Shown: positions 16,216 to 52,234, numbered from the stretch's first letter. The stretch is 64,000 nucleotides of DNA from Psammoneis japonica (GCA_008632985.1 QPGO01000076.1:124001-188000), one strand, 5' to 3'. Numbers and translations are program-made. The notes: a model not told the origin generated them from the sequence alone.

Positions 16216-19200
16216 CACGTCAAGCATTTTCTCATGCATTGTTTCCATTTGTGATTTCTTGTTCTTGTTTCCAAACAAACTTCCAATCAGCAATGTGCTG
16301 GACATCAAAAAATCATGTCTCTGTTGCTTGAAGACCAGTTGCTCCAGCGCAGCTTGCACAGCGGCACAATGCTGTGCACAGAAAGCACAGCAAAAAGGCC
16401 GCTGCCAACAACATGCCAGAAAACGGATTGTCCATGTGTCCAGAGGTGTGTCTTTCAGGTCAAATGTGTGCAGCATGTTGCCTGGGACTTGATGCATGTG
16501 TTCAACAACTGTGTTTGCTCATGAATTTTGTGCAGTCATTGGCTTGCACTTTGTGCCACAGTGCTCTTGAGCCATGTTTCTTGATTGGCATCCAATGAAC
16601 TCACTTCCATGGTCATGTGCAGTCAACTGTGGCAAAGGACATCTGCTTGGCCATGTCCATTCTAACAATCCAGCAATGGTCATGGACTCTTCACTTGGAA
16701 TTTCCACAACTTCAAACCACCCTGTTGCCAGATCAATCATTGTCGAACATTTCAGGACTGGGGATCTCTTCTTTCTCTTGTGATGCACCTTGTGTGGTCC
16801 AATGAGATCCACACACAGCGATTCCCACGGCGCCGTTTCTGCAAACTCAGGGGGTGATTGTCCACATTTCTTTTGTTTCTTTTTAAATTTTTGGCACGTC
16901 TCACATTTTGACACATGTTTTTGCATGTCATCATGCAGTGCAGACCACCACAAGTGTTGTGAGATTGTTTCTTCAGCCCTGTTTGTGCACTTTTTGCAAT
17001 GTCTTTGGTGCCACAATTTTTTCCTTGTGACACTTGAGCAACCAGTCTTGCTCGCCTCCCTAAAAAGTCTTTGCACAACATGTCATGTCCAACAATTTGG
17101 ACAGAATGTCTTCACCCCACTTTTGTTCAGCATCAAAAGCTTTTCATGTCAATGGAAAGACATTGTTGTGGGATTCAGGTGCAACTTTCTCAGCCAGATC
17201 TTCAATGCTGAGGTTTTCCATGTGGTTGATTTTTCCACAGCAAGTTGGCTGATTTTGTCTGCGATGATGTTCGCCTTGCCCTTGAGGCAAATCAATCCAG
17301 GACTGCATTCTTCTGTCATCAGTCACCAACACATGACTCTGTCCATTGTGAAGTTCTCATGGTTGAGATTCTTGTGATCCACACGCATTTTAATTGGTTG
17401 GCCAAACAGCACATTCTGGAATTCCTTTGGTGTTTCCACAGAGGACAGAAGTTCTTTTTTCGTTGCAGTGCAGCATGTCTGCACTCCATTTGGCTTGCAG
17501 CTGCAGAAAGCAACAGGTCAGTTGCTTTTTGTGCAATGGCTGCCCCAATTGAGAATTGCTCACATCAGCACATGTCTCAAAGGGTTTGCTGAAATTTGAG
17601 CATGGTGATGACAGATCTTTTGAAACAACTTGCTTTGTGTTTTTGAAGGCTTTTTGTTCTGTTTTGGTCCGTTGCGGCTTGACCTTGGATGAGATGAGTT
17701 TAGCCAGAGGAGCAAGAATGTGAGACTGCCAAGGCCACATGTCTTGACAGCAGCCAATCACACCAATGAAACATTGCAGTTCCTTGCAAGTTTTTGAAGT
17801 TGCGATCAAGTGGATCACTTCCACTTTCTTTGGCATCAGACCAACGCCATTGTGGGTGACATGGAAGCCCAGACAGCCCACTTTGGGTTTGATGAAGAAG
17901 GGCTTTTTGGCACTGACCTTCAGCCCGGCTTGTTCCAGGTGCACAAACACCATTTCAAGCTTTTTGAGATGGCCCTGAAAATCACCTTTTGCAAGACACA
18001 GCACATCATCAACATGAGTTCTGACAAACTCCAGACCTGTCATGAGCTCACTCACATGCTCATTCCCGCAGGTGGTCTGCAGGGGGCTCACATTTGCCCC
18101 AAGGCATGACAACAGCGCACAACCAATGTGCATGTGGAGCCAATTTGACACGACAGTGTCCCATGTTCAAATCCAGGGAAGCAGCACACATGAAACCTTT
18201 GAGTTTTTCCAGCATGTCTTGAACATTGAGCAGAGGAAATGGAGCACATGTCAACCTCTCACTCAGTTCACTGAAGTTGGACAGAAACTGAACTTGACCA
18301 TTTTGCTTTGGTCGAACAAAAGTTGGAGCTGTCCATTCAGAACAGCTCATTTTTCTTGAGACTTTCAACTTGCGCAGTCTTTCCCCTTCCTTTCAAGCAG
18401 TCACCTCCAAGGCTTGTGCGAACTTGTGGGTCAGGGTTTCCCATTTCACTTGCCTGGAGAACCATCAAAAAGGTTTTCAAATCTTTTTGGGAGGAAGTTC
18501 AGCTGCTTCTGCTCCTCTGGAGTAAGATGAGTTGCTGCTGCAGCTGCAGCATCAAGGTTGGCTGCATGATGATCTGAGTCAAGGATCCAACTGACTCTGT
18601 CATCAAGACCAATCATGGCATGAGATTCCCCAATGTGACCGGCAATTAACTTGAACACATCAGCGCCAAAGAGTGAGTCAACATTCTGCGTTGGTGTGGT
18701 TGCTTCTCCCCATTTGATTTCTTCATTTGCACAGTCCATGAATGACTTGAAGAAGAAGGGTTTTCATCAACATGTGCCGTTGTTTCTGTCATCTTGTGCC
18801 CATCAAATTCAGGCAAAGAGAGCGGCATTGAACAGCAACTGTCAGTCGTGAAGACAGCCCACCCTTGGTTTCCCAAGTTTTGGTGGTGAATTTCTTCATT
18901 CTCAATTTCTGCGTGAATTTGTGCAAAATTGTGGTTGACAATGTTCCGCTGTCAAGGAGAACATGCAGAGGCTTGTTCTTTGCTTTGCCTGAGCAATGAT
19001 TGCTGGACTGGCATGAATTGCTTTGGCCCTTTTTCTGGGCTTCCTGACATCTAGCAGCACATGAGACACCTCGAGCGATGCTGGCCATTCTTCAGAATTG
19101 CTGCATGTCATTTTTTCAAATTGACAATTCTCCTTGCTGAGGGTGTCAGAACTGCACTCTTTGCACTTTGTGTTGTTGTTCAAAGAACTCACCTTGAGTG

Positions 19201-20280
19201 TTTTTTTGAACTGCCTGGACCGCCATGGCATTCAGCTCTTCTTTGCAAGCAGCATTTTCATTGTTGCAACGCAACCACATGCAACTGCCATTTGAACAAC
19301 ACCTTTTTGGATCACATTTGCAGCTTCCATGGTGTTGTTCTTTTGCTGGTCGTTCAATCACCCAGCACTTGTCTGTGCATGGTCAGCAGATTTCTTGCAA
19401 CAGCTGCGTGCCACTTGATGGACTCAGATCATTTGGCACCAGATTGGCAGCCATTTTTGGAGCCAGGATTGGACCCATCTTTGGCTTTTGATCCAGGCTT
19501 GTTCCTGGTGTCAGCTTTGACATGGGCAGCATCAAAGACCTCCTCAGCAACCTCCAAAAGCTCTAAAAACTGGACCACCTTGTTTGGCGCATGTTTCAAA
19601 ATCTTGAAACCTTGGGCTGTCAACTGGCGCTGCCATTTGCAAGGTGCAAGATTGCAGAGGATGTCATTGAGCTCATCCTCCTTGATCTTCTGACCTTCTT
19701 CAAAGGGAGGACAAAGCTTGAGGTCTTTGTTGACTTCTTGCACCCAAGCAGCAATTTCTCGAATCTCTTCCTCATGCTCTCTGGCTTTTTGAGATTGTGC
19801 CGCAGATGACGCTTCTGAATCTGAAGTGTGCTCTTTGGGAAAACATGCCTGGTGAGGTGCTGTTGACATTTTTCAAGGTTCCTTTGCTCTTTTTGTTTTC
19901 AACATTCACAGCCCCATTCTCAAAAGCATGCAGAGCGTCTCCCTGTGAAGCGACATGCACACAAGACGGAACTCACCCAGTTGCTTCTTGACACTCTGAC
20001 CCACCAAGAGTTGCTTGCAGTTCTTTGAGAATTTGGTGCATTTGGGGATGCATTGCTTCTTGCAGTGCTCAACACTGATGGTGCAAGCGCGGCTGTTCTT
20101 CTTTCTTGGGTGAAAACACTGCTCCATCTTGAGGCACTGACTGGCTTTGAGCATCTTTGGTTCGGAGATTGATTCTTCCAATGGCTGTGGCACAATTTTC
20201 TCTTGCTTGAAGGAAAACTTGGCATCAGCAACATGAGGTGATGAAAGCTTCATTTTTGTCTTGGCACCTTCTGCGGTGTG
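16210..20280 (-). mobile_element. Heavily degenerated Ty3/Gypsy LTR retrotransposon body (gag-PR-RT-RH-INT); LTRs not identified
   Basis: PR 'VLLDSGT'; RT 'LDLNMGHC', 'PWGKCE', 'RTHVDDVLC'; RH-like 'FETCADVSNSQLG'; INT 'PWESLCVDLIGP', 'MIDLATGWFE', 'HDHGSEF'; Gypsy domain order; many stops and frameshifts. Confidence 0.92.
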
Positions 20281-20831
20281 CACACACGGCGCACTGTGCT
20301 CGAAGAGTGGGTGTGCAAACGAAAGCAGAGCGAAGCACGAAAAGTGAAAATTGTGAGGCTCAGAGCATTGAAAAGGCCATCAGCAGCAGGCACTTTCTGT
20401 TAAAAAAAAAAAACAAGCACTCACAAGAATCGCACGACTTTGCGCATGCACTTTACCTTCGACTTCCAATGTTGTTGCAGATGTTCAAAACACCCCACAC
20501 CCTTTGTTTGCTTGTCTTTATCACCCACGACTAACTCGAGACCCCGGCGTCTGTGCTGGACAACCACTATGACTCTCTACTAGCTAAATATATAATATGT
20601 TCATCCACAAGCCTTGGAAAAGCATTCCGAAATCTGAAAATGTCTGCTCTTGTTGCTCATAAATTCATACCTTCCCATGACATATCTGGGGCAAGAGTTT
20701 TTGTCCATTTTGCGTACATCACTTGCGAATTGGCTTACTCCGATGGTCATAGTCATTCAATGACATAAATCCCTCCACTCGCTGGTGAGTTCAGTCACAA
20801 TTTATTTCATCACGACAACACACAATGAACT

Positions 20832-26385: not shown

Positions 26386-27914
26386 ATTCTCCGCCTTATC
26401 TTTCAATTATTAGGCTCCTTCAGGTGACCACTTCATTCAATGCTCACGGATGGGTTTCGTAACGGATGCCGAGATTTTCGGCTGCGTCTATAGAATCTGA
26501 CGACTGAAATGCGCGCGCATCGTGATCGTTCCGAATGAGTCCGAATCGGGCGGGATGCTCGAGATGCTATCCCATTTACTCACAACCCGCTTCCTCCTTC
26601 CACGACAATTCAATCTTATCAAATAGAAATGAGCTGGGTTCAGCAGCAACAACAACATACGCCATGTGAACGTTTTTTCACGCCTTTTTTATTCATCAGC
26701 TTCATTTCTCACCATGTCGATGTGACGCGACGACCGACGAATCACCGTCATTGAGTGCTCTCTCGCTAAGTCCTCCACAATGTTCACAAAATTCACACCA
26801 AAAAAATGCCATTCAATTTACGCAAAGCCCTTTCACAGTCGCGTGTGAGCGCAGGTGAAGGACGGATCGAGTTGCATGGCTCAATGGGGGGCATGCCGTC
26901 AAAAGTCTGTGGTGCTCTGAGCCAACTGCGGCAGCTCCACTTCCTTCTTCAAATGTCAAAGGATGGTGGAAAAGACCTCGAGTCCCTTCATGCAATGCGG
27001 CTCAACTTGGCGCATGAGATCCAAGGAGCGTTTGGTGCTTTTGCAGCCAGCGACTTCAAAGCATGCCCAACCGACCTGATGAAGCACCCATCCTGTTTCA
27101 ATTGCTTGGGCAAGAGGGGGCAGAGAATGTCCGCAAAGCCTCACAGCAGCGGTGCTGCTGGCACACCAAGAAGGACATGTGGTGGTGCAAGCAATCCAAG
27201 GTGAATGCAAATGATTTTTGCACTCAAAAACAAACACTGTAAATGTCCTTGTTCAAATGCCGAGGCAACTCTGGGACAAACACGGGGATGACCCCGGTCG
27301 GGCGGTTGCTGCATTTTTTAGCTCAAATTTGGCCAGTTTGGCTCGTGATTTTCTGCTGAAAAATTGATTTGCCGCACTTGGAACATGGCAACAATGGTGG
27401 CTTCAGATGATCCAGGCAAGTGCAGTGGAGGTGGTCCATCTGCCAACTCTTGCTTGTTTTGCATTCCTCATGTGTCAAAGATGTCATGTGCATCAAAAGT
27501 TTGTAGACGGCATGCTGCGTTTTTGAGAGCAAACAGTGCTTGTCAGCCAGTGCCATTGCGACACATCCATGATGACACTCACGCTTTGTTGCTTTGTGTT
27601 TTTCAGGCAAGGCAAAGAAGTGCTGCAAAAGACTGAAAATACAAGATGAGAGGACTCAACAGAGTCATGCAAAGGCAATGGCGGCTGAGAAGAAGATGCT
27701 TTCAGCAGCCTTGCTTCAAGCCAGAAGTGACTCCAACTGCTGAGTTTCCAGTGCATGCTCTGAGTTGCACAAGTGTGTCCCATGTGCCAAGAGCCATGGG
27801 GAAAGATTTCCAATGGCAGACTCTGACTCGCCATTGGTGGGAGCCAAAGATGCCAAGTCACCAACCCTTCAATCCCTCCCAGAGTTGTCAAATGGTTTCT
27901 TTGATGAAATCATG

Positions 27915-29060
27915 TCAAACGGGCGGCAACTCACTGGTTTCTGCTGCGGCATCAACCGAAACTTTGGGAAGCTCTGTCAAGGATGGACGAGCGCCATTTT
28001 TGTTCCACACATCACACGGTGACCACAACAAAGCTGTGGTGTCAGCATCAAGTGGCTCCATGACGTTTGATGTGGACAGATTCAAGACTGTGATGACAGA
28101 CGCACCATGCATGTCAAATGAAGTCATGCAGCTGCCCACAAAAATGCGAGTCACTGTGCAACCATGTTGCTTTTCCAGACAGCCCAAAATGGAGTTGGTC
28201 AAGATTGACATTTCAAAATTAGATGTCCAACCCAAATTGTTGATGAGGACACAGAGATTGTCTCCTTTTTCAAACATGGGAATGACTGCTTCTGATTCAT
28301 TGACACGCCCATGCTTGTGAGTCGCATCAATCATCTCTTTTGCAAGTTCCTTGCTTGACAAAAGTGCAGACTGCTTTGCCCCAGCTTTGCCATGAAGTCC
28401 AAGACCAATTTCAATCATGTTGTCATCATCCAGACAATCTTTGACCGCCACTGCACCAGGCACCATGACTGCATCAAGCGCCACACCCAATGTTCCCATG
28501 TGTTTTGCAGTCAACGCAGCAAAGTTTGCCACACCCTGCAAAGATTTCCCTTCGGCAGCAGCCGCTCCTGCAATCTGGTGAACAAGGGTGGTTTTGGAAA
28601 TGCCTCAAGCTCCAGCGACACCCTTGGTTCTCTCCGAGGCTGTGTCATTGGCTGCAACCACCACTTGGCAGGAAACACCTTCCAAGCTGGCTCGCTCACA
28701 TGCCGCTCCAAAGCTCAAACAGTTGCCGACGCAATTCTTTGCCACTGGCAGAATGGGGCTTGTTTTCCCACACAAAGTGGCACAAATTGCAGCCAAGATG
28801 GCGGCAACAGAGGGAGATGCAAAGATTCCTCCTGGAATGGCTCCACTGAGCATGCCGTTGCCTGTCCATCCTGCATGACTCGGCTCATGTCCGCCACCAC
28901 CACTGCTGAAAATCTGAACACCCGCTCTGGCCTTCAAGTTGCTCTTGAGCACAACATGGTGATTTTTCAATTTTGTGAGGCAAGTCAGATGTTGCAACAG
29001 CAGACCAGCAATGAATTCATTGACAGCATCGGCTGGATCGTTCTTGATGATCATTTTTTC
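27915..29060 (-). pseudogene. Dihydroxyacetone kinase (DhaK/DAK1 domain) pseudogene inside a TpA-depleted island
   Basis: SGGGGHEPSHAG, GGIFASPS, KNCVGNCLSFG (cf. KNYTGDRLNFG), IEIGLGLHGKAG, VLINNLG, SCMTSFDMHGASV; frameshift near 28600. Confidence 0.9.
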
Positions 29061-30252
29061 GGCTTGGACGGCATGACACTTTTCTGCTGTGCGAGCTGAG
29101 CCAAGCAACAGCCAACCATTTTGCGCGAGGGTCAATCACTGCTGGGAAGACTTGCATGGACATTCTCAGCAAGAAGCTCCTTTGCACAAGGGCTGTCGCT
29201 CAAGAGCACGGAACAAAAGCTGCGGCCCAACCAACCAGCTGTGACCTGTCTTGTGAGTCGCAGCCGAGACAGCGAGTTCTTTGAGAATTGCGCTCACTTT
29301 GCTCTGCTTGTCAATGACCATGGCATCATTGCACACTTTGTTGGAGTTCTTGAAGATGCACATGCAAACGCGGAACAGGGGCCCACTTGTTGATGGATCA
29401 TCGCCGAGTGCATTTTGCTCTTGCTGGAGCGGTCGGCTGAGTGCAAGAGTCAGTTGAATGGAGTTCACCAGCGATTGGAGTGCACACAGTGTGATGGAAA
29501 AAACTGCTGTTGTGACAAGCAGAAAGCTTTCATCAGCTTCCACAGTTTGCCCACACCGCTGCGATGGCTTGGTCGCCCACATGCAGTCATCTGGGTTTGG
29601 TTTGACTTTCTCCGCACCCGCGGGACAAAATTTTTTGTCCCGGTGTTTTCTCCACTCAACTCAAGTGCAGCTGTCATTTCATTGTCATTTGTGTGTTTAA
29701 TCACACATTTCCTGGTGTTGTGTCATTTGAATGGAAAATGTTGCCTTTCCTCTTTGTCAGCGACTTCAGAAAAATGACTCGGCTTGACACATTTCGACCC
29801 ACGGACATTTGGTTTGGACACTTGCAAAGCAGGGTGCACAGCCGCCCAGCTGACAAAACCCATGCACAATGCAAAACTTTGAACAGGACCGAAGATTTCG
29901 GAAATTGTCGCCAAAAGTCACTCTTCCATGGTGTCTGCACACATCTCCAGCATGTGTGCACATCTGCCCGTCACTTTTTTGCACCCTGTTGCCCTGGTCC
30001 ATTCAGATGTGTCGTCCGGTTTTGCACATGGCACGGATCTCTTCGCAGTTGTCCAAACTGCAGGTCCAAAGTCTGTCCTGGGGCTTGCTGTGCCATTGGA
30101 CAAAACTGTCACGGTCGAAACAGCAAACATTTATTTGTATTTATTTGAATAGAAAAGTTTTGTTATTTATGTTGGCATTCTTCATAATGGAAAATGTTGT
30201 TTAAATACGGCAATCGCGCGAAACCGCATGGGTACGGAAAAAGTTTTAACGC

Positions 30253-30341
30253 GACCCAAAATTCCTCCGAGACCCAAAATTCCTCCGAGACCCAAAATTC
30301 TCCGAGACCCAAAATTCCTCCGGGACCCAAAATTCCTCCGA
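30253..30341. repeat. Tandem 18-bp repeat (GACCCAAAATTCCTCCGA) x5
   Basis: Directly visible; one copy is 17 bp. Confidence 0.9.
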
Positions 30342-31710
30342 ACAGAGAGTCACAGTGGAGCGCCGACCCACACTCGGCCTTGTCTTTTTGATGAGCAATT
30401 CATTGAAGACACGGATGTTGCTTTCAGGAGTCCGGATTCTTCGGCAAGGCCCTTGCTTGGTTTGGCCAGAAGCGGGGTTGTTGTTGGGTCTTTTCGCTTG
30501 GCGGCAAACCCGTGCTTTGGCGTGAGAAGTGTGCTCTGTCTTGGGTGGTGTGCTGTGTGTTTGATCTTTGTCGAGAAAGGCACCCGGCGCGGCACACCCC
30601 TTTGTTCCGAAGCACGGAGCAGTGTTTTTGCACTTTATGGTGTGTGCTGACAGGTTTTTCGATCTCTGTGACAGGTGTGCATGATACTTATGACTGTCTT
30701 GTTCTGTAAGAGTGGAATGATTGCCTCAGGGCAGATGCGAGCGACCGCATCATCATCGTGTTTCTGTGGTGATGTCGAGCACTAAGTCGGTGGGGTGTAG
30801 CCGTTGTATCGTCAAGGGTTTGGCTTTTCGGTCGGCTGTGGATATTCGGTACTCGCCATGGGAATGGCCACGACTCGAGCATTTGGAATCAATCCTTTAT
30901 CATCCTCCATGGCAGGTCGCCTTCTCTCTCGACGAGCACAGAGCAACAAGAAGAAATTCAAGGAATTTGACAAGAGCCCTCGCTTGAAACGCTTTCTATT
31001 AGCACTCGGAATCTCACTGTTTCATGCCTTGCTCCTGCACTTTACGCACTCCGTATTGTCGCAGATGGTGCCGTCACCAAAGGATGAATTGGCTTGGCGT
31101 TGTTCTGGAGATCAAACAAATACTTTGCTGGTCCTACGTTGTGAGTTTATCGTGTTTGTCGCCACCCAAACTACTTGGGAGACGCATTGTTTTGTTTAGG
31201 CTTGGCGGTCAGCGGTGTGGCGAGCTTTGGTTCCAACATAATTACACGTCACGACCAGCATTGGATTGTATGGTATTTTCTCCATAATGACTTTCCAAGA
31301 AAGCCGAGAAACTGTGGAAATGGACGATGAACAAGGACCTCCACATCGATTTTCCTGTGCGTAAAAAGCGAGACTTTTACTCCATCTTGGCGAACGCCAT
31401 GAACGGTTACATTCGCATCAAGTCTTCAATTGAGGTATTTCTCATGGTCAATAATAACTGTAGCAGTTCCGGTCGAGTACGAGAAGAAGGATGAACGAGA
31501 ACTATAACATCATGTATGTTGTACAACGGGTGATCTTGCGTTGTAGCTAGTAACTCTTACTCTAGAGAATCTATGGAGACGATACAGCTAGATAGTAGTA
31601 ACTCCGAATATTCTAGTCTAGAGCCAAGACTGAAAGTAGGAAAAAGAGGAGAATCAGTTTTTCTTTCAAAGCGACAGGATCGCCTTTGGGAGACGATGTT
31701 GTCTCGACGC

Positions 31711-34394: not shown

Positions 34395-35020
34395 CTTGAG
34401 ACTTAGCGAAAGTTTAACCCAACGAATAAGACACAAGGAGATCAATCAGACTTAGGGCTCTGATGTTGCAATTTTGCACAGAGGCGTGACACATCACGCA
34501 ACTGCACACTGAACACCGACCGGTTGCTGTTTCTCAGTCACGAAGAAAGAGGGATCACGTCATTGGGTGAAAGATGTGGATAAATGTGTCTTTACAATTA
34601 TATTGTTAAAAATGTCCATGAGTCTTTGTTGGACAAATTTGTGCAAATCCGAAGGTCCAGTTGGCGCGGTTGAGTTGATTTGGAGAGATTTACAACTTTC
34701 TTTTTGTGAAAATCTGTGTGTGTGTTGGCCTGTTTTGGCAGTTTTGAGATGGGGCAGAACCACGAACCACCAATGACATCAGCTGTCGTGGTTTTGCATC
34801 ATCGATTGTTTTTTGTCTGTGCAAAATGATGGCAAGGCAGCGGTGGCACTGTTCGTTGTTTCAAACAAATGGGCCGAGGCACACCAGCTGCAGAGCTGGC
34901 TGTGTTGGAGCTGAGCCAGCACAGCCAAGCCTTTGCTTGCGCTCACCTTGCTTTGCCTGTGCTTTTTTTCTCAACAGCACAGTTTGGCCAGTCAAGGACA
35001 TTGTGTTTGTCTTGCTTTGC

Positions 35021-35577
35021 ACACCAACTTTGAGACAAAACTTGGCATGTCAACTTTGGAGCGAAGCTCAGTGCGCCGACTTTGGAGCGAGACTCGGCGC
35101 GCCAACTTTGGGGCGAAACTCGGCACGCCAACTTTGAAACAAAACTTGGCGCGCCAACTTTGGGGCAAAACTTGTCATGCCAACTTTGAGGCAAAACTTG
35201 GCATGCCAACTTTGGGGCAAAACTTGGCGCACCAACTTTGAAGGAAAACTTGGCATGCCAACTTTGGGGCAAAACTTGGCACGTCAACTTTGGCACGAAA
35301 CTCAGCGTGCCAACTTTGGAGCAAAACTTGACACGCCAATTTTGGCACAAAACTCAGCATGCCAACTTTGGGGTGAAACTTGGCGTGCCAACTTTGGGGC
35401 AAAACTTGGCATGCCAACTGTGGAGCAAAACTTGGTGTGCCAACTTTGGGGCAAAACTTGGCACCAAAACTTGGCATGCCAACTTTGAGGCAAAACTTGG
35501 CATGCAAGCAAAACTCAGCATGCCAACTTTGGGGCAAATCTTGGCATGCCAACTTTGTAGTGAAACTTGGCATGCCA
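35021..35577 (+). repeat. ~26-bp tandem array (GCCAACTTTGGGGCAAAACTTGGCAT)
   Basis: About 20 degenerate copies; unit has GCCAA...TTGGC inverted ends. Confidence 0.9.
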
Positions 35578-36344
35578 GAGGGGTCATTCCCTGGCACTTT
35601 TTTCTTGTCACCGCCGGCAGCCCAGCGGATGACAGCAGCCACAAAGTTGGACAACAGCAGCACTCACAGACTCCCAGCTTTGGATGGCATGCCACCTTCA
35701 CCCACACCTGAGATCTCAGCTGTCTGGGCAAATTGTTGAATGTGATGGCGGTGTGTCTCCAGCTGGAAAGGCAGCACACACACGCAAAAGCTGGTCCAAC
35801 ACTTCAAGGCTGGCAGCAATTGAGCATCCTGGCACAGCAATGCATTCCAGGTCTGGGTGGGACCTTGCGCTGCTGAACTGTGACATCGACAGTTTTTTGC
35901 ATGACTTTTGCAAACTTTTGTGTCGTTTTACAGTGCAATTGTCAGGCGATCCATTCAACAACTTTTGATGTTTTTTTCTTCTTTGCCATTCTTGAGTGTC
36001 TTGAGAATGGCGCAGGGAAGGCGAGCTGTCCAAAACTTTGAGCACGAACAGGGATGTGTTCACTGCAAACTTGGCCGCCTGTTTTCATGTCGAGGACAAA
36101 TGTGTCCATTGACCAGAGCACGAACTGCAGAGCTTGCGTGCAGAATTCCACGGGGCAACTGTCACAAAAAGTCCCGCCTGGCAGGACTGGAACCCACCCA
36201 GCAACCTCAACATCATGCCCAGCTTTTCTTTGCACATGTGTTGCCAGCATGCAGTGGCCCCTGTCACAGCACGGCTCTTGGTGGCCACAGCTGCTTGCGC
36301 AATGCTCAAGGTTTTGCATGCAGCCAAAACTGGTTTGCAGCTGA

Positions 36345-36776
36345 TGCCCTGTGCATGCACCAGGCGCTGAAAAAGAAGATGTGTTGCGACTTTGTCGTTG
36401 TGAAAATTATGAGCTAGTTTAGAGTGGAGAAAATGGGATCGTGCGAACAGGGAATCTTGCCAAATCCCCATTCGTTCGCATTTGGATCGCATCAAATCGA
36501 TCGTGCGTTCGCATTGTGGATCGTGCGAATCAAGCCATCACGCGCCATGCACGAGTGATGTCATCGTGTGGAATCACGCCACCATCGTGGGCCAGACGAC
36601 GGGCCAGTGTGCTTCACACGGACGCTCTCTTAGCATCCTTCTGGAATTGCCCAAGACCTGGAGCCACGCCCTCCTGTGGTCGTGCTTCCCAGGCACGTGT
36701 TAACAATGCTGCGTTGCCACGCACAAGAGGCTCATGCACGGTCTCGCCGTGTTGTCCAGCAGCGAGGCATGCTGCA
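36345..36776 (-). repeat. 3' LTR of the Gypsy element
   Basis: Gap-free match to 41130-41561. Confidence 0.95.
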
Positions 36777-36815
36777 CACTCCCCCATGATCAGGGCCGTT
36801 AAGTGACAGGATGTC

Positions 36816-39800
36816 TCACTGGTGACAGGGCACAATCTGCCGTAGATTGCACGTGTCCATCAGTGCTCCGTTCTGGATGTGCAGCGTGCCATTGTCACAT
36901 GCACGGACAACTCTGGCGGGTCCTGCATGGCTGTCAGAACCGCACTTGGAGGATTGTTCCTGTTTGACAAGTGCCAATTGCCCTGCGGTGTGTTGACACT
37001 CCTTGCGTTTCTGATTTTCACGCTTGTTGTTTAAGTGGATGAGCTTCTGCTTTCTGGTTTCTATGTGCTTCCACTTGGCACGATGGGCAACAGACAAAAC
37101 CGCATCGCGTCCGAAGACCAATTGCATGGGACTTGCACGCGTGGTCGTGTGTGCCGCAGCTCTAACAGCGAAGGCTGCTGCAGAGAGGATGCCACTCCAT
37201 GGGTCATCTTCGTCCAGTTCCACATCCTGTGCTGAAAAGGAACGCACCATGTCACCAAGTGTCTGGTGTGCACGTTCCACTGTGGCATTTGCCTGTGGAT
37301 TCCGTTTGCTTGTGGGTTTCTTCAAAATCCCACAGTCATTTTTAATCATCTGGCTAAATTCTGCCACAAATTCTGTCCCACGGTCATGAACCACCTGGGT
37401 TGGCCACGGACATCTGCATGGCCACGTTTGTTCCACGACGTTTGCTGCGACGTCTGCGCGTTTCGTAGACACTTCTTTAATCTCGAACCACCCGGTTGCT
37501 GGGTCAATCATTGTGACTGCCCACAATTGCAAGGTGTCCTTTCCGCGTCTTTGAATTTTACATGGCCCCATCACATCTGTGCACAGAGTCTCCCATGGAA
37601 TTATCTCTGCGACCTTTTCTGGCAGCTTCCCATGACGCTGCGTTCGGCGTTTTGTCTTCTGGCATCGATCGCACTTGACGCACGTAGAATGCACCGTAGA
37701 CCTCATGCCAGGCCAATGGAAGTGCTGGGCAACAGACATTTCCGTGCGTGTCTCACCTGGATGACACAGTGTCTCGTGGTGCCATTCAGTTAGCGGAACC
37801 TGCAATGACTGTGGTGCTGCGATTTTGTCCTTATGACAGATTAACTGTCGTGATGACCCTCCCCCACGATGCGCGCGAATGGAGCAGTCGGACGAGACCT
37901 TGGCTCTTGAGAGTGGGCGCTTGTCCTTTTGTTGTGCTTTTTGAATGCGCTTGAAGCCAATGGGCAGAGATGGCTCATCTTGCGCGTCTGCATTAAAAGC
38001 TTCATGCAAAGGACGACTCGATGGAGTGTCTTTTACATCCGGATTAGCCTCGGAAGGCAAGCTGGGTGCCAGTCGAAGGCGACTAAGAGCGTCAGCGACT
38101 GGGTTGTGGGCACCCTCAACATGGCGTAATTCGGGACCGCATTCTTCGCACATCAACCGCCAGCGCATGACGCGCTCGGTGTTGAACACTTTGTGCGCAA
38201 GATTTTTATGATCAGCATGTGCAATTGTGTGATGACCAAGGAGAATCGTTCGAAATTCTTTCAACGTCTCCACAATGGCGAGCAATTCTCTCTCCGTTGT
38301 TGCACAATTTAATTGCACACTGTCAAGCTTTCTGCTGTAAAAGGCGATGGGTTTGTTGTCTTGGGATGCAACTGCTCCCAATTGACATTTAGAGGCATCG
38401 GCGTGCACCTCAAAGGGTTCACTAAAATCAGGATGTGACAACAAAACATCATCCGACATTGCCCGTTCAATGGTTTCGAACGCCTCATCTTCAACGGACG
38501 TCCACTCCCACTTAACAGTCTCGCTTGCGAGTCGTGTCAGCGGAGCCAAGACTTCAGAACGTCCAATCCACATGTCGCGGCAGCAGTTCACCATGCCAAC
38601 AAATGAACGTGGGTCGCGTTTGTTGGTTGGGGTCGCGATTCACTCAATGGCATCAACTTTGTCAGGTGTTGGTCGCATTCCGTCTCTGTTGACCAGATGA
38701 CCCAAGCACTCTAATTGGGTTTGACAGAAGTGAGATTTAGTTGCGTCAACTTTTAGTCCTGCTTTCTGGACCCTCAACAAAACTTCTTCAAGTTTGTTGA
38801 GGTGATCTTCATGGGTGCCTTTCGTCATGACGAGAAGGTCATCTAAGTGCGTTCGAACGAACGACAGATCTTCAAATGAGCCTGACATGCGTTCTTGGAA
38901 AATGTCTGGTGAATTGCACAATCCCATGGGCAATGCCTGCATCTCATGCTTGCCCCACGGGAAGATGAGCGTGCAGAGCTTCTTGCTGTCAGTGTCCAAT
39001 CGGATGTGACAATGGCCCATGTTTAAATCCAGCGATGCAGCCCACACAAAGCCTTCGAGCTTGAGCAGCACATCTTGGATGTGAGGAATCGGATGAGGCA
39101 ATCGCTTGATCCGTTTGTTCAGCTCTCTGAAATCATCAACAAAGCGTGCCGTTAAATCTTTCTTCGGTGTGATGGATGATGGAGCTGCCCATTGGGATCG
39201 GTTGATGCGTTTGAGAACACCGACACGCACTGGGCATTCTACTTCTTTACGCAGCGTAGCTTCGCACGCACGAGGCACTTCATGCGGACGAGCGTGGTGT
39301 GGTTCTACACCCTCCTTGAGTTGGATGTGGAAGGGTTCTCCCTTCCATTCTCCTGATGTCCCATCAAACAAGGACTCATGGCGTTTCAACAGTGCCAAAA
39401 GGTCATTTTGTTGAACTGCAGAAAGTCCCATTGCCCCTCGCGTTGTGTCCTCGAGGCAGGCCGGTGTGCACTTGGCGTCCAAAATGCACAAAATCCGGTC
39501 GGTTTCCGAAGATGAGGCTTCTGGATCTTGAAGATAGAAGGAGGTTTCCACCGCAGCATCTACGTGCCTCATTGGTGCTTCTCCATTGACCAATGGCCAC
39601 TCTGTCATCTGTTTGGAGAAGACAACATCAATGCCTTGCGTCTCCAGAATGTCACGCCCAACAATCACATCGCACTTGCCCAACTTTCCGTTGTGCACGT
39701 GGACGGCATGCTCAAGTTCTGCAGTTTTGGATGATTCTGGCAACCAAAATTTAATGGCACAGTCGTCAGACGCACTGAACGAGCCTGCTGCCGTGGTCCA

Positions 39801-41035
39801 GTTTGTCTCAGCCATTGAATGGCTTCGCAGACGTTTGCAGTGTCGACTGTCGAGTAGAGTGCTGCTGGTGCCACTGTCTGGCAGTGCCTCAACAGTTTGA
39901 GCCTTGCCCTTGCCATGTTTGGCATTCATGGCCACAAACAAGATTGGAGCAAGATGAGTCTTTTTAACTCGTTTGCGGGATTGGCCTGCAACACGTGTGC
40001 GTAATTCAATTGTTCATCAATGCATTCATCCAATGCATTGAAACTGCCTGCATCGTGTCGGCAAGTGTCCGAGTCTTCGGAATCACTTAAATTGAGGTCG
40101 CGGAAGTGATTGAGCTCCTCCTCGCGTGCCTTGCGCTTTTTCTGAGCGTTGGCAAAGAACTCCTCGACCTTCGATCCGATGAGAGCATCAATGTCTTCCT
40201 CATTCTGAGGTTTCATGTCAGGCTCACTGCCTTCGTCACTGGAATGTCCAGTCTTGACACGTTTCACGTGGGTGTTCGGTTGGGTCGTGATCAACGACTC
40301 AGAATTGTCCGTTCTACGTCCCCGCTTGCGTGGGACCCTAGCATGTTGGTCGCGGTTGCCTTCGGTGAGCTCGACCTGCTCGGTGCGCTCGCAGAACTGC
40401 ACCAATTCGGCGACAGCATGCGCCAACGGGTCAAAATTCTGTAGCGTCATGAACTTCTGCCATGCGTTCGGCACACCGCACTCGAACATGTCGCACAGTT
40501 CGTCATCAGGCAATGGTGCCGGTGTTTCTCCATCCTCCGTCACGGGTGGAAACTGAGAGACACAGCCGTTAATTTCAACAGCCCTTGCGACGTAGTCACG
40601 AGTGGAAACCTCTGCGGGCTTGCGCATGAAGCGCCGCAGATGACGCTTCTGCAATGGTGCCGCCCTGTGAGGGAAGACACTTTCCTTTAGCTTCGCGACG
40701 CATGCTGCGCACGCAGCATTGGTTTGGGATGCCTGCTTGTCAGCGGCATTGTCAAATGACGTCAGAGCATCGCCCTGTGGCAGGTCACGCACAAGGGCAA
40801 ATTTCGCTGGCCCGGTCGTGATGTTTTGTCCTTCGTGCACGCGATCCACGTTGCGCAGAAAGATTGGGAGTGTCTCGCATGCAGCCGTAGAAAGGTGCGG
40901 AATGCCCATCTCGTGCATTGGACTGTCCGGATCAGTGGGGTTGTTACGCAGCTTGAACGTCTGGTGCTCGCCCTGCTACAGCTCTTTCTTCTCCGGCCGT
41001 GCGAACGGAATCGGCGGCTCAACCCGCTTCTTCAT
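36816..41035 (-). pseudogene. gag-pol of the Gypsy element (stops, frameshifts, Tyr->Cys/His substitutions)
   Basis: PR 'ALPDSGT'; RT 'LDLNMGHCHI', 'RTHLDDLLV'; RH 'ADASKCQLGAV', 'ERELLAIV'; INT 'HHETLCHPG', 'DRGTEF', 'NPQANATVERAH'. Confidence 0.95.
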
Positions 41036-41129
41036 GGTCGTTTTAAGATTTGTCGGTCCTGCCAACATTTCGCAGTTTCGTTTCTGCAGATTTCGTTGCC
41101 TCGCACAACATGCGGGAGCAATGTCACTG

Positions 41130-41561
41130 TGCCCCATGCATGTGCTGGGCGCTGAAAAAGAAGATGTGTCAAGACTTTGTCGTTGTGAAAATTGTGAGCT
41201 AGTTTAGAGTAGAGAAAATGGGATCGTGCGAACAGGGAATCTTGCCAAATCCCTGTTCGTTCGCATTTGGATCGCATTAAATCGATCGTGCGTTCGCATT
41301 GTGGATCATGCGAATCAAGCCATCATGCGCCATGCACGAGTGATGTCATCGTGTGGAATCACGCTGCCATCGTGGGCCAGACGACGGGCCAGTGTGCTTC
41401 ACACGGATGCTCTCTTAGCATCCTTCTGGAATTGCCCAAGACCCAGAGCCATGCCCTCCTGTGGTCGTGCTTCCCAGGTGCGTGTTGACAATGCCACGTT
41501 GCCACGTGCAAGAGGCTCATGCACGGTCTCGCCGTGTTGTCCAGCAGCGAGGCATGCTGCA
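41130..41561 (-). repeat. 5' LTR of the Gypsy element
   Basis: Gap-free match to 36345-36776. Confidence 0.95.
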
Positions 41562-43989
41562 CTGACCCTGCTGCTGAACAACTTTGAAAACTTGCGCACC
41601 ACATCTGACCCTGCATCCTCAATTTTGAGCAGTCAGGCAATGACTGCACCATTGAAGAAAAGTGCCAATTAATGACTCACAACAGGGGGGGCACCACAAA
41701 GCCAGCAACACTCTCTCCAAGTGGCGGGCCACCTGAAATGAACTTGGCAGTTGTGTGCTGCCATGCTGTGCCATCTGCAAATTCTCATGACTGCCACATG
41801 GTGTGCTGGCATGTGCGTGCAAAATGACTTGGTGCACAACAACTTGCCAGATCCAGTGTCAAGCAAACATGTGATGGAAATCCACTGAGGTTGTGCCAGT
41901 CACTGACTTTCCAACAAAGAAGAAAATTGTGAGACAACCCACAACCCACATCTCATGTGCGCTGGGGCCAATGGACTGGCCCTGGCGCAACAGCTGTGGG
42001 CTCCTGCATGATCACACTTGCAGAGCTGCCACACTCAAAAGGTGCACAAATGTTGGCGAGTGCCCCTCAAATGAGACCAGCATTGGTTGGGCACCTCAAG
42101 TCCACACTGGCGGCAACCAGCAGGGCAAGAAAGCTGGCAGCTGCTGCGAGATTGGCAAGGTTCTTGACAGAGAGGGGTGCTGCAAGGAAGTGCTGGCAGA
42201 ATTTTGCAAAGCTCTTGCAATGGACAGCTTGTCCAGCTCATTTTTGGTGTGCCAGCACAAAGTTGTGCAGATCTGCACATGCAAGTTTCTGCGCATGTTT
42301 GTGCTGAAATTGTGGCAGTTGGGCCCATCAGCTCATTCAAATTTGTGCGGCAACCCACCCGCGCATGCCGCACTCACAATGATGATGACATAACGGCATT
42401 TTTTGTGCTCTGATGCCACCTTGCCACATCACATCTCCCTTGCCATGGAGTCTCAGAACATTGCTGACAACTGGTTCAAGAAAATGGCCAGTCGTGACCA
42501 AGTTGCAGGGGTTTTGTTTCGCCACAAAAAGACGCTGTTGGACCCATCAACATGACGCACAATGGTTGGTGTCGGAATTGCCATGATGCGCTGACCCTGT
42601 TTGAAGCATCTTTGGTGGTGTTGTGATGTTGGCATGCAGCATGGAAGACTCAGCAGTTCTCAATGTGGTGGCATGACGGCGGAGTTGGCTGGAGGCAAAG
42701 GAGGGCTCACCCTGAATGTGTGTGTGTGGATGCAAGAACCGCAAATGATGCATTGGCCCCATTGCTGGAAGTTGCCTCAGCAGCACTGTGGCAAACACAG
42801 CCGGCATGGATGACTCAGCAGAGCTCACGCTGGCGGCATGACAGCAAATTTGGTCTGATCCCAAGGAGGGCTTGTTCTGAAAAGAGGTTGCTCATCGAGG
42901 AGCTGTGGTTGGCTGCTTTGTTGTCCTTTTCTCCATGCAGCAGCAGCTTGGAGGGCTCTGCTTTGTGAGCGCAAACAAGCGATGCTTCCAAAAAGATTCA
43001 TGGTTGTGGACATTGACCAGTCACATGACAAATCTGTGACTGAAACAAAAATGCTGAAGAGCTGTCAAGTCGGCGGCATTGTCATCTTGTTGAATGAGCC
43101 AGAAGTCTCATCATTTGCTCTTCTGCTGCAGAGAGCATTGATTGAATTGAACAGCAACTTGACAGAGAAGACATCAGCAACATTGGTGGAGGAATTGGCT
43201 GTGGTTGTCATCTGAGAATGACTCAAAGTGGGTGACGCATGCCTCTGTCTGTTGCGACCCAACAACACGCGAACAGCTGTGCAGTCTGTTGAAGCTTCTG
43301 ACCAGCTTTGAAGGCAACACATTTTGTCTGTCAACAGACCAACCATCTGCACGTCATGCAACAACAGTGTTTTGGCATTTTTGCTTTGCACCCACAGTGT
43401 GTTGGCAACGCCGCTTGCTCTCTTGCAAACTCTCTTCATGTCTCGCGCCATTCTTGTGTTGGAGCTTGCAGAGCTCAAATTGAATTTCTGCTGGCACGCC
43501 AAAAATGAAACTCGGCAAGCTGTCCATTTGCCAAGCTGCTTGTGTGGGAAGGATCGTCCATGGACATCACAGCTGCCTGATGCTGATGATGATGCTCAAG
43601 CACAGCACACTGGCACTCTGCATTTGAGCCAGCAAGAGAGGCCTTTGCTGCTTTCTCTCTTTCCTTCCCTTGGCCCTGTGGCTCCAAACCTGATCCATGA
43701 GCTTTTGTGCAAAACCTGAGCTCCGCAGCTTTCTGCACACTGTGGCTTTTGTGCAAAATTGTGCCCCGCAGCTTTCTGTGCCCAGCAGCTTTTGTGCAAA
43801 ACCTGTGCCCTGCAGCTTTCTCCCTTGAGTGTGGGCAACTTTTGCAACCCTCCCTCTTGGGCACAGCATTTTTTGAATGTTGGCACACCAGCTTTGGCAC
43901 AAAACTTTGCATGGAAAGTTGTGTTTTCAAGCAAAAAATGGAAATTCTGAGTGAGTTTTGACCGCATGCAATGCCAGTTGCGCAGCTGC

Positions 43990-45770
43990 ACGTGCTTTTT
44001 CCATGTGACGAGCTCACGCATTTTTGACACAACTTTTGACACAACTTTTCACACGGGTCAAAGTTGTGTCACATTTTCAAAAATGCACATCCAGGCACAT
44101 TTAAAATTCCTGCAAGACTTCCAGTGCAAATTCTGCACAAAGAAATGGAGCCCAGGTGTGAATTTTGAAAGTTGTGCTGCACATTTTTAAAAACGCATGT
44201 GCGGGTTCTGTTGCACACAGAAGTCCAGTGGATCCTGCATCCTGCCACAATGTCAAAGTTGGGACATTTTCAACTGTGCACACCTGGATCTTTGCACAAC
44301 TCTTTTTTGTCCCACACATTTTTTGTGTCAAAAGTTTGTTTTTTTGCGAGGTGGTGTCGGCAATGAATTTGTGTCATCCAACAGATTTTGTGCTGGCAGG
44401 CAAAATTCACATCAATTTTGACATGCAGGTGGTGAAAATGGCAATTTCCCACAGACCCGTCGGCATGCCAAGTTTTGCTCCAAAGTTGGCACACCAAGAT
44501 TTGTGCTGAAGTTGGTGCACCAAAACATGTGCCAAAGTTGGCATGCCAAGTTTTGACCCAAAGCTGGCATGCCCAGTTTTGCTCTAAAGTTGGCATGCCC
44601 AGTTTTGCTCTAAAGTTGGCATGCCAAGTTTTGCCCCACAGTTGGCATGCCGTGTTTTGTGCCAAAGTTTGGGTGCCGGGTTTGCTCCAAAGTTGGCAGT
44701 GCCAGTTTTGTGCCAAAGCTGGCATGCCAAGTTTTGAGCCAAAGTTGTCATGTCAAGTTTTGCTGCAAAGTTGGTTTGCCAAGTTTTGTGCCAAAGTTGG
44801 CATGAGGAATTTTTCTCCAAAGTTGGCATGCCAAGTTTCACACCAAAGTTGGCATGCCAAGTTCTGCCCCAAAGTTGGCATGCCAAGTTTTGTGCCAAAG
44901 TTGGCATGCCAAGTTTTGGGTCTGCAGGAAATCATGTGTTCAAGCAAAAAACAGAGAGTCTGTGTGAGATTTGAGGGCCATTTGCAACAACAATGGCGCA
45001 GCCACATTGCTTTTCCTGTGTGACAAGCTTGCGTGTTTTTAACACAACTTTGGAACAGCTTTTGTCACAAATCAAAGTTGTGCCACAGTTTCAAAAATGC
45101 ACACCTGGGTGATGTCAGAATTCCTGCGAGACTTTCAGTGCAAATTCCACACTAAAAAAGAAAACCCAGATGTGCACTTTGAAAGTTGTGCCACACATTT
45201 TGAAAAATGTGCACGCGGGTTCTGTCGCATGTGGAAGTCTGCTGCATTCCTGCACAACACAAAAGTTGGGACATTTTCAATTGTGCACATGCCCGGGTCT
45301 TTGCACAACTTTTTTTGCCCAACACATTTTGGTGTCGTGTGTCAGCAACAAGTTTGTCTCATCTGACAGATTTTGTGCTGGCAGGCATGGCTTGCATCAA
45401 TTTTGATGTGCAGGTGGTGGAAATGGCAATTTCTCGCGCAGACCCTTTGCACCAAAGTTGGCATGCCAAGTTTTGCCCCAAATTTGGCATGTTGAGTCTT
45501 GCTCCAAAAAGGTGGTGTGTTGAGTTTTGCTCCAAAGTTGGTGTGCTGAGTTTTGTGCCAAAGTTGGCAAGACCAGTTTTGCTCCAATGTCGGCATGCTG
45601 AGTTTTGCTGCAATTTTTGCAAAGCAGCTTTTTCCCCAAAGTTGGTGTGACATGTTTTGTGCCCCAGTGTTGGCATGCCAAGTTTTGCCCCAAAGTTGGT
45701 GTGCCAAGTTTCCCCCCCAACAGTGGGCATGTCAAGTTTTGTGCCAAAAAGTTGGCACTTTTGCGCCACA
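43990..45770 (-). repeat. Two ~1-kb tandem units, each ending in a reverse-complement array of the 26-bp repeat (~44462-44915, ~45450-45760)
   Basis: 'tcaaagttgtg..ca..tttcaaaaatgcac' at ~44060 and ~45072; 'gtcaaagttgggacattttcaa' / 'acaaaagttgggacattttcaa' at ~44252 and ~45259. Confidence 0.85.
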
Positions 45771-46663
45771 AAGAGCTGGCACAACAGGGGATCCGTCACA
45801 AGCCTTGTCGGTCATTGGCGATGGCAATTTTCACAGTGGAGTGGTCCAAAAGATTGATCTGGCTGACCATCTTTTCCAACCAAATGTCACAATCAGAAAG
45901 ATGCATTCACAGTGTGGTGGTCAAGAGCTTGCACCCACCAACGGCCACACACTCGGGCCCCTCTTCTCTGCACACTTCTGGAGCGCAACAAGTTTCTCCA
46001 TTGACAAACCATTGCGGCAGGTTTTGTTTCATCAACCTTGGGTGTGTTTGCTTTTGCAGCCCACAACCTTGTGCAAACTGACAGAAGCTGCCCCCCCCCC
46101 CCCCTTCACTCATTTTTGTTGTGGGCCTTGGTCACTCCTCGCTGGAGGAGAGCGGCTTCTGCACCACCCTCCTGCTCTGGCTGTGCTTGCTCCTCATTGA
46201 TTGCAGAGCTTGTGGTTGTTGTCTTGTCTTCACCACAGATTCGATGAAGTGGGTCCGATTGACAAAGTTGTGTGCTTCTGCACGAGCAGTTTCCAGTTGG
46301 GCCGGACGAGCATTGAATTCGACAGGTTTGCGATGAGGAGTCCTCCTCGTCGTCCGCCACCCCCCGCGGCGCGCCACGCACGGCGCACGCAGCCGCAGCC
46401 GCAGGTTATTGTTGTTCCCACCCGTCGAACTCATCGCCCATCGCACATCAACGCTATGAAGAGGACATGGGAAGGCACGGGGAATGCTTTCCTATTCCCT
46501 GGATGTCGACTGATGAGACTCCATTCTTCTCTTTGTATGGCTTTGAGTGTGAATGTTGCGTGGTGTGCTAGACACTGCTGAGTTATTACCGTTTTTGCGG
46601 TAGACACCGCATAAAAATGAGACAAACGCGGAGGTTATTGCTTAGCCGTACCAACTCATCCTG

Positions 46664-50149: not shown

Positions 50150-50820
50150 TGGAATTGTTCGACATGTGCACACAATGCAACAATGACAACGACTCCATGC
50201 GTCGCACAGGAGTGACCTCACACTGAGACCCCCACATCAATGGGAGAATCCAAAGCCCAGTGGATCAGAATTGAAGATCTTCTACTGTTGCAAAAAGGCA
50301 AGAACATGGCAAAAGTGAAAGTTGCCAAAAAGAGCTGGCACGCAGGTTTGCCACCAACATGTGCTCTCCAGCTTCGGGTGGGACCTTGCACTGCTGGACT
50401 GTGACATTTGTGTTTTTTTATTTGCACCACATGCCATGCAGCTGCATGACTCTGATGGTGGCATTTTGCACCATTTTGCAGCGCAGCCGTCGAGATGTGG
50501 TGTTTCTGGCTTGCTGTTTTGCTGACGATGCTGGCCAGCTGTTGTCAGCCACATCTGCGTCTCTGAGCAGCAGCACGCACTTGGCCTTCTGGATGAAAAC
50601 AAAAAAGGGAGTGTGTCTCTCTGTGCTGCAGATCTTTCCATGCTGGCTTCGCTGCTGCTGGCTTTTTGAGCACATCGCAAAATTGCGAGTCTTTCTGGTG
50701 TGCTGCTGGTTCTCTGAGAGATGGCGGTGACTCCTGACATTCCCATGTGCAGCATGAGTTCTTTTCACCATGGCAAGATTCCAATGAAGCCACGTTCCCC
50801 ACGACAAGCGCGGGGGGTGA
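50150..50820. mobile_element. Small TpA-depleted repeat fragment related to the 35.8-kb sequence
   Basis: 'gggtgggaccttgcactgctggactgtgacat' (~50376) vs 'gggtgggaccttgcgctgctgaactgtgacat' (~35855). Confidence 0.6.
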
Positions 50821-50988
50821 GATTAGATCTGTAAGAGTCAGCGAGTCTGTCAGACGTCAGAGATCTTCCAGCGATCTTTTGTCTGTTGAAGAGGAAAGAT
50901 ACGAGATCACCACGTGCCGATGCACGACTCGGTGCTCGATGCTTTCTCACAAAAGCTTGACATGTGATCCTTCTTCCTTGGATGCACC

Positions 50989-52173: not shown

Positions 52174-52234
52174 GCGTTTGAGCAAAGTAGTACCAAGACA
52201 CGAAAATTGCCGCCGTATCTCCCCCCCCCCCCCC

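Follow-up and report, generated by a model that had tools for sequence, protein, structure and literature searches.

The 64,000-nucleotide stretch of Psammoneis japonica DNA analysed here (GCA_008632985.1 QPGO01000076.1:124001-188000; hereafter the window, with all coordinates counted from its first letter) contains a Ty3/Gypsy long terminal repeat (LTR) retrotransposon in which the dinucleotide TpA has been converted to TpG and CpA after integration, on the DNA in place. The conversion is regional, strand-symmetric and graded by sequence context, a slower decay of CpG accompanies it, and the replacement of tyrosine by cysteine and histidine in the element is its by-product at the protein level. 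Taken as a whole, these observations are most probably explained by TpA mutation of the integrated element and of the five repeat islands of the window, brought about by a host mutator acting on silenced or foreign chromatin.

The complete element, both LTRs included, occupies positions 36345-41561 on the minus strand (Table 1); an earlier, sequence-only reading of the same DNA had placed it at 36816-40918, which lies inside these limits but falls short of them. The LTRs are direct, 93% identical, end in TG...CA, and are surrounded by a 4-bp TCAG duplication, while the Pfam domains, all on the minus strand, follow the order reverse transcriptase, RNase H, integrase. The pol open reading frames (ORFs; 38640-40013 and 36816-38639) constitute a single frame split by one TGA, and 1610 homologs share the same domains (E ≤ 0.001). 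The gag-like ORF (39926-40975) has no Pfam match. The in-frame TGA (38640-38642, minus strand) arose as a CpG transition and not through the TpA process, because the other copies of the element read CGA at 0.99 of their depth.

For the scoring of tyrosine, the pol frame (36816-40013, minus strand) was aligned to 56 homologs of at least 980 residues, taken from the best 120 of the 1610 (metagenomic, 48-60% identical). Scored were 619 columns with an occupancy of at least 70% and a consensus of at least 60%, the tyrosine columns being those with Tyr in at least 60% of the homologs. Among the 31 conserved tyrosine columns the window has Tyr in one, Cys in 13, His in 13 and other residues in four, as against 460 of 588 non-Tyr columns retained (Fisher p=4e-18). 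Tyrosine makes up 0.2% of the window pol, compared with a mean of 4.0% in the best 120 homologs; cysteine (3.6% vs 1.3%) and histidine (4.8% vs 2.6%) are correspondingly enriched, and their joint excess approximately equals the missing tyrosine. Host-gene ORFs of the window contain 2.2-4.1% Tyr.

These counts agree with the claim that nearly all tyrosines had been lost, including that of the YxDD motif, which reads HLDD. All eleven motifs and codons that had been quoted for this element and for an older Gypsy element at 16.2-20.3 kb were recovered on the minus strand, with the codons and places given for them; the older element, with its four motifs and no Tyr across eight ORFs, follows the same pattern. 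With HLDD instead of an intact YxDD, 30 of 31 conserved tyrosines replaced and a TGA within pol, the young copy reads as a Ty3/Gypsy member that is dead, and it is reasonable to suppose that the loss of tyrosine inactivates its proteins. The corollary that inactivation had come about without stop codons is only nearly true, given the TGA in pol.

The codons replacing other TA-containing codons point to a process at the DNA level. Within-codon xTA replacements gave the predicted codon in 19 of 19 cases: ACA in all four Ile>Thr, ATG in both Ile>Met, GCA in all six Val>Ala, CCA in all four Leu>Pro and TCA in all three Leu>Ser changes. First-position A>G replacements are preceded by T in 19 of 26 cases (baseline 37/140 for retained G-initial codons). 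Of 158 conserved columns with a replacement, 64 are accounted for by a single TA>TG/CA step and five by CpG. The two strand outcomes occur in nearly equal numbers (34 TG : 30 CA) and are randomly interleaved (runs test z=0.03), which argues for many sparse hits on either strand and not for processive tracts on a single strand. The proposal thus holds that A:T>G:C at TpA gives Cys from one strand and His from the other. What does not stand is a recoding directed at tyrosine as such: the Tyr>Cys/His pattern is real, but all TpA is mutated, and conversion is as strong in the non-coding LTRs, the satellites and a Dak1 (dihydroxyacetone kinase) pseudogene as in coding DNA.

The time of the change is given by the LTR pair. 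LTRs are identical when an element integrates, yet those of the young element now differ at TA/TG/CA/CG (pyrimidine-purine, YpR) steps, and conversion therefore took place after integration. Within an ungapped block of 433 nt all 29 mismatched positions fall inside YpR steps, while none of the 193 LTR positions outside such steps differs. The differences comprise 10 CA-vs-TG pairs, four TA-vs-TG/CA sites and four CG-vs-TG/CA sites, one C/A transversion adjoining one of the TpA-type differences; counted as events they number 18 (13 purely TpA-type, one TpA-type with the transversion, four CpG-type). CpG is intact in both LTRs at 28 sites and decayed at four, so that CpG decay, as had been claimed, cannot yield the pattern. 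Double CpG hits are expected at about 0.07 sites only; the 10 CA/TG pairs must then descend from TpA sites hit independently in each LTR. The counts yield hit fractions per LTR of about 0.91 for TpA sites and 0.067 for CpG sites, a rate ratio of about 35.

That the element was edited before integration, either as RNA by an ADAR-like A>I activity or as cDNA, and inserted already mutated, is extremely improbable. Its precedents are that ADAR-type enzymes prefer U before the edited A (bioRxiv 10.64898/2026.01.13.699255) and that hyperediting of retroelements is known in animals (PMC4866542). Beside the CA-vs-TG and TA-vs-TG/CA differences between the LTRs, it is contradicted by the symmetry of outcomes, since one-strand RNA editing gives a single outcome, by the equal effect on satellites and the Dak1 pseudogene, and by the old flanks being more depleted than the young element nested in them.

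Beyond the element, depletion is confined to five sharply bounded islands (about 23.6 of the 64 kb), delimited by TA-free runs of 400-1711 nt against a background of 44.0 TA per kb, and adjacent host genes have normal TpA and Tyr. The observed/expected ratio (O/E) of TpA, 0.62 in the background with its genes, drops to 0.22 in the young element, which still has 64 TpA sites, and to 0.03 in the five islands. Conversely, CA and TG are raised in the old islands (O/E 1.84 and 1.70) and throughout the affected DNA (1.4-1.8), where GC reaches 49-52% as against 46.5% in the background. Within the islands TpA/ApT is 0.04 and (CpA+TpG)/(ApC+GpT) is 2.0, and CpG is lost as well (CG O/E 0.34 vs 1.02). 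The young Gypsy element (TA O/E 0.12-0.27, CG O/E 0.66-1.07) is less depleted than the flanks of island 3, into which it was inserted (0.00-0.05 and 0.24-0.44); depletion therefore increases with residence time, and TpA is lost before CpG.

Pfam matches were found in six of the 108 ORFs overlapping the islands (C2 and ANF_receptor at island edges, RVT_1, integrase, and two Dak1), and the islands also include sequence that matches no Pfam domain. The older and the young Gypsy element do not align at the DNA level. A 26-bp satellite array of island 3 has inverted copies at 44459-44920 and 45446-45758, beyond the young element and 9-10 kb off; the arrays are 65-80% identical, and all three are TpA-free. 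The Dak1 pseudogene of island 2 (405 residues) contains no Tyr, 14 Cys and 13 His, has an in-frame TGA at 28605-28607, and reads KNC and GSCM at the places of KNY and GNYM in DhaK chains of the PDB. Being hit by the TpA process, it indicates that a host-type gene copy was targeted and not only mobile DNA; the process is restricted to delimited regions, but these are not strictly foreign, as one island contains this pseudogene, which may be a duplicate, a retrocopy or a capture by an element. Island 2 is bracketed by a 168-nt direct repeat (26206-26372 and 31707-31870, 83% identical), the second copy of which overlaps the 3' end of an ORF for a class-C G-protein-coupled receptor (GPCR). The repeat may be the trace of a local duplication that made the Dak1-containing insert.

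Related elements elsewhere are normal in this respect. A metagenome scan with two Tyr-free peptide patterns yielded 79 related Gypsy loci (368 kb), none of which has a TA O/E below 0.5 (minimum 0.54, median 0.77). Four of them (L039, L011, L058, and L063) combine CG O/E of 0.01-0.20 with TpA O/E of 0.54-0.71, the extreme being L039 (0.01 and 0.71), so that their hosts have CpG methylation and decay without the TpA process. Because the 79 loci are normal in TpA, several of them despite extreme CpG loss, the depletion reads as host-imposed, and neither as a property of the element lineage nor as a side effect of CpG decay.

The same 79 relatives served as context baseline for the ancestral element, with host DNA as a second baseline. 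Against the former, no survivors were found in the contexts ATAC/GTAT, ATAT, and GTAC, where about 88 were expected, while 2 of 38 survived in ATAG/CTAT, 4 of 48 in ATAA/TTAT, 16 of 38 in CTAA/TTAG, and 17 of 26 in TTAA; host DNA as baseline gave the same order. Read as adenine targets, the preference for the 3' neighbor is T > C > G > A. Since no context is more susceptible than TAT and TAC, the two Tyr codons, tyrosine is the worst affected.

Other copies of the element were sought in one DNA data set from the same organism (X1), possibly the source of the window itself and so not independent. It contains 0.53 of the element's sampled 31-mers, and 6070 of its contig pieces match the element with a likeness of at least 80%. 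Among these copies 425 of 442 variable places are transitions. At the best-supported 40, other copies have TA where the window has TG or CA in 15 cases and CG in eight; four show the reverse, and 13 other differences.

It is very improbable that no mutation process was involved and that the signal reflects TpA/UpA avoidance, codon usage, lineage composition, or an assembly that misread a modified base. TpA is under-represented in most genomes, the background of the window has a ratio below one itself, and the window includes an assembly gap of 31 N. Selection, however, would not favor the loss of conserved catalytic tyrosines, non-coding LTRs and satellites are affected, and the 79 related elements all have normal TpA. 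The recurrence of the element's 31-mers in X1 also speaks against a misreading, with the qualification that X1 could be the source sample and that its platform is not on record; moreover, misreading of a base would not account for the loss of CpG as well.

As to mechanism, the host, probably a diatom, would defend its genome by aiming a mutator at chromatin that is foreign or holds silenced repeats. By analogy with the chlorarachniophyte Bigelowiella natans, for which Mettrop et al. propose DNA adenine deamination by an ADAT2-like enzyme (bioRxiv 10.64898/2026.01.13.699255, 2026), the mutator would most likely be an enzyme deaminating DNA adenine to inosine, which is read as G. It would prefer 3' neighbors of the adenine in the order T > C > G > A and strike both strands sparsely and independently. 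The islands probably correspond to CpG-methylated repeat domains of the kind known from diatoms, and such methylation, here a prediction, would explain the accompanying loss of CpG. As TAA and TAG are destroyed and stops are rarely made, dead copies would retain long open frames.

The same conversion could proceed from the thymine side, a modified T (5-hydroxymethyluracil, 5hmU, or a further-modified base) pairing with G to give T>C. All LTR, codon, strand and context counts fit T>C after a 5' neighbor in the order A>G>C>T equally well, and in dinoflagellates 5hmU is found preferentially at TpA. The host resembles a diatom and not a dinoflagellate, however, and we know of no report of 5hmU in diatoms, no literature search having been made on it. 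The B. natans preprint favors adenine deamination, by candidate-gene reasoning only (bioRxiv 10.64898/2026.01.13.699255), and the thymine-side route seems quite unlikely. A dinoflagellate host was itself considered and dropped: a spliced-leader motif has no match in a search allowing up to 2 mismatches, and the host genes point to diatoms.

A mark of chromatin or foreignness need not be the trigger; duplicated sequence might be sensed instead, through homology or copy number, as happens in repeat-induced point mutation (RIP) of fungi. All identifiable island content is indeed repeated or plausibly duplicated: the Gypsy element is represented by thousands of contig pieces in X1, the satellite occurs three times in the window, and the Dak1 pseudogene is itself a copy. 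On the other hand, no repeat partner exists within the window for islands 4 and 5 or for much of island 3, the direction of change is opposite to that of RIP, and the main hypermutated viral region of B. natans is reported as single-copy by depth and BLAST (bioRxiv 10.64898/2026.01.13.699255). Such a trigger is considered unlikely.

Several points weigh against a host adenine deaminase directed at silenced chromatin, or at least limit how far the evidence for it reaches. TpA is palindromic, and sequence cannot separate adenine-side from thymine-side chemistry; an adenine deaminase as the enzyme and deamination as the chemical step are candidates, put forward on the parallel with B. natans. The natural tRNA substrates of ADAT2/3 are unlike the 3' preference found here, with T best and A worst. 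Contexts were compared with host DNA or with distant relatives, neither of which is the element's true ancestor. At a uniform rate 0.2 TpA sites would be expected to remain unchanged in both LTRs, but three do, which implies uneven susceptibility and makes the value of 0.91 an average. The assignment of the host to diatoms is based on two genes, those for the UvrD-like helicase and the cyclin. Finally, on whether intact family members share the Cys and His residues the other copies answer in part: they have TA at 15 of the 40 best-supported variable places, and none of the 40 lies in a Tyr codon.

The genes between the islands encode, according to Pfam, RRM, amidohydrolase, 2-oxoglutarate oxygenase, M64 peptidase, SDR, class-C GPCR, cyclin, UvrD-like helicase, and RING proteins, in long uninterrupted ORFs with no relative above 66%; no deaminase was found by Pfam among the proteins encoded in the 64-kb window. 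The best named relatives of the UvrD-like ORF are from Thalassiosira sp. (51% identity) and Attheya sp. (38%), and the organism-named clusters among the ten best for the cyclin ORF are Attheya sp., Cyclostephanos tholiformis, and Odontella aurita. On these similarities the host is probably a diatom without proteins of its own in the collections; it is not B. natans. The UvrD/PcrA-type helicase is split over two adjacent ORFs (52425-55632, minus strand); its close relatives are only diatom or unnamed (38-52% identity), followed by bacterial helicases (24-47%), and it is possibly an old bacterial acquisition in diatoms. The assembly gap (52234-52264) lies close to the 3' end of an unannotated 401-residue ORF (50968-52173) and a short way upstream of the helicase ORF (52425-53729). 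An Amidohydro_2 gene (4640-6004, minus strand) in normal-TpA DNA may likewise be of bacterial ancestry, most of the relatives listed for it being unnamed or bacterial (35-58% identity). Neither this gene nor an unexplained ORF, which gave one diatom-labelled cluster (0.86) beside weak look-alikes of fungal DUF7918, was used in assigning the host.

Table 1. Features of the window and of the two Gypsy elements
Feature	Position	Strand	Remarks
Island 1	14792..20400	.	TA O/E 0.03-0.04, CG O/E 0.10-0.26
Tandem repeats in island 1	15354-16216		
Older Gypsy remnant in island 1	about 16129-20379	-	Pfam RVT_1 17393-18166 (-), Integrase_H2C2/rve 16522-17082 (-)
GCCQDMW	17735-17755	-	older element
RTHVDD	18005-18022	-	older element
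PWGKCE	18087-18104	-	older element
MGHC	18153-18164	-	older element
Island 2	26820..30635	.	TA O/E 0.02-0.06
Dak1 pseudogene in island 2	27918..29135	-	Pfam Dak1, E 2e-39 and 7e-30
Island 3, old repeat domain with young Gypsy inserted	34692..46406	.	11.7 kb; TA-free runs up to 1711 nt
26-bp satellite array in island 3	35007..35577	.	TA O/E 0.03 in 35001-36000
Target-site duplication TCAG, 3' side	36341..36344	-	directly after 3' LTR end (...GGGCA)
3' LTR, TG...CA, 432 nt	36345..36776	-	gapless alignment with 41130-41561
Purine run GGGGGAG	36779..36785	-	2 bases upstream of 3' LTR; polypurine-tract-like, putative function
pol ORF, RNase H and integrase part, 607 aa	36816..38639	-	Pfam RT_RNaseH_2, RT_RNaseH, Integrase_H2C2, rve
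NCATTE (AAT TGT GCA)	38292-38309	-	young element
DASKCQ	38382-38399	-	young element
NCCRDMW (AAC TGC TGC)	38568-38588	-	young element
pol ORF, protease-like N-terminus and reverse transcriptase, 457 aa	38640..40013	-	Pfam RVT_1, E 1e-17
ECLGH	38697-38711	-	young element
HLDD (in place of YxDD)	38838-38849	-	young element
PWGKHE	38943-38960	-	young element
MGHCHI	39003-39020	-	young element
gag-like ORF, 349 aa	39926..40975	-	other frame, 88-nt overlap with pol; gag by position only
5' LTR	41130..41561	-	starts TG; pairs with 36345-36776
Target-site duplication TCAG, 5' side	41562..41565	-	directly before 5' LTR start
Island 4, small	50420..50823	.	TpA-free; no Pfam match
Island 5	60008..62098	.	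TA O/E 0.00-0.03, CG O/E 0.19-0.20; no Pfam match

The TpA process has reshaped more than one third of the window, and its consequences for the study of such genomes would be practical as well as biological. TpA O/E is a simple marker of silenced or foreign DNA in them. Dating by LTR divergence will be badly wrong without masking of TpA and CpG sites, and automated gene prediction will report long ghost ORFs without Tyr where elements are dead. A mutation process documented so far in one preprint, for one chlorarachniophyte, would also operate in major marine primary producers if the host is a diatom. It would be a second natural, regionally targeted DNA mutator directed against mobile DNA, after fungal RIP and with the opposite chemistry (A:T>G:C), and its enzyme would be of interest as a natural adenine editor in double-strand context. 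The context hierarchy constitutes a testable prediction for the published mutation-accumulation data.

A broader interpretation is possible, and is put forward tentatively: TpA-directed DNA editing could be an old genome defence shared within the stramenopile-alveolate-Rhizaria (SAR) group, in diatoms as in chlorarachniophytes, that takes its cue from silent chromatin and attacks silenced DNA of any kind (retrotransposons, satellites, pseudogenes, and viral inserts), with a four-base hierarchy (ATAT, ATAC/GTAT, and GTAC first, TTAA last), at about 35 times the speed of 5-methylcytosine (5mC) decay, and leaving frames open. If so, thousands of ORFs in such genomes would be Tyr-free ghosts.

Among known systems, RIP of ascomycete fungi converts CpA to TpA by C>T, lowers GC, and creates stop codons; it operates before meiosis, with RID, a protein of cytosine-methyltransferase type. 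It resembles the process described here in acting on DNA after integration, in producing only transitions within a dinucleotide context, in being confined to repeat or transposon islands adjoining untouched genes, and in leaving compositionally aberrant blocks. The direction is the opposite: in the window TpA is destroyed, GC rises, and stop codons are removed. The islands accordingly lack the TpA-rich, GC-poor composition expected of C>T at CpA, and the two dinucleotide ratios given above for them are the reverse of the RIP indices.

APOBEC3 and ADAR enzymes of animals edit cDNA or RNA ahead of integration and leave their marks on a single strand. Common to them and to the process in the window are deaminase-type transitions with a neighbor preference, imprinted on retroelements, and a proposed role in defence; the changes in the window are post-integration and strand-symmetric, and they extend to DNA that was never reverse transcribed.

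Decay of 5mC in diatoms offers a parallel for the accompanying loss of CpG to TpG/CpA in the islands and at four LTR sites. Neither TpA nor Tyr codons can be lost through it, and here the TpA process runs about 35 times faster. In the methylome of Cyclotella cryptica, as described (PMC5124317), CpG-methylated repeat blocks alternate with unmethylated gene-rich DNA in a binary pattern; the islands resemble these blocks in size and in their alternation with gene-rich DNA, and their methylation is predicted.

The closest system is that of B. natans. According to the main text of the preprint (bioRxiv 10.64898/2026.01.13.699255), mutation-accumulation lines acquired 231 mutations in two integrated viral inserts, one from a giant virus and one from a virophage, of which 230 were A>G or T>C; these changes were all at TpA, at about 6e-7 per site per generation, which is about 1000 times the genome rate. 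The genome contains 124 TpA-poor, CpA+TpG-rich clusters, and TpA-poor coding sequences are enriched in reverse transcriptase and DDE domains. Shared with the window are the almost exclusive A>G/T>C changes, only at TpA, that give TpG and CpA on the two strands, the regional action with sharp limits, and the long-term outcome of low TpA with high CpA+TpG. The rate excess is of comparable order: it was measured there as about 1000-fold, and here the LTR pair suggests at least a few hundred-fold (0 of 193 non-YpR positions vs about 91% of TpA). The host there is a chlorarachniophyte (Rhizaria) and here probably a diatom (stramenopile); the targets there are viral inserts, and here LTR retrotransposons, satellites, and a pseudogene. 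The giant-virus (nucleocytoplasmic large DNA virus, NCLDV) insert has a TpA ratio of 0.45 and the virophage insert is undepleted, as compared with near saturation in the window (TA O/E 0.03-0.22).

Full-text literature searches, subscription journals not being covered, found no other report of TpA>TpG/CpA and none for diatoms. The main text of the preprint contains none of the terms CpG, LTR, retrotranspos-, Gypsy, tyrosine, trinucleotide, context, or diatom, although its supplements may have context data; the LTR proof of timing, the co-decay of CpG, the four-base hierarchy, and the effect on tyrosine are therefore additions to it. The process is thus already described in B. natans and not categorically new. 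What appears new in comparison is the probable diatom host, the retrotransposon and satellite targets, the near-saturation, the timing by LTRs, the link to CpG decay, and the extended target hierarchy.

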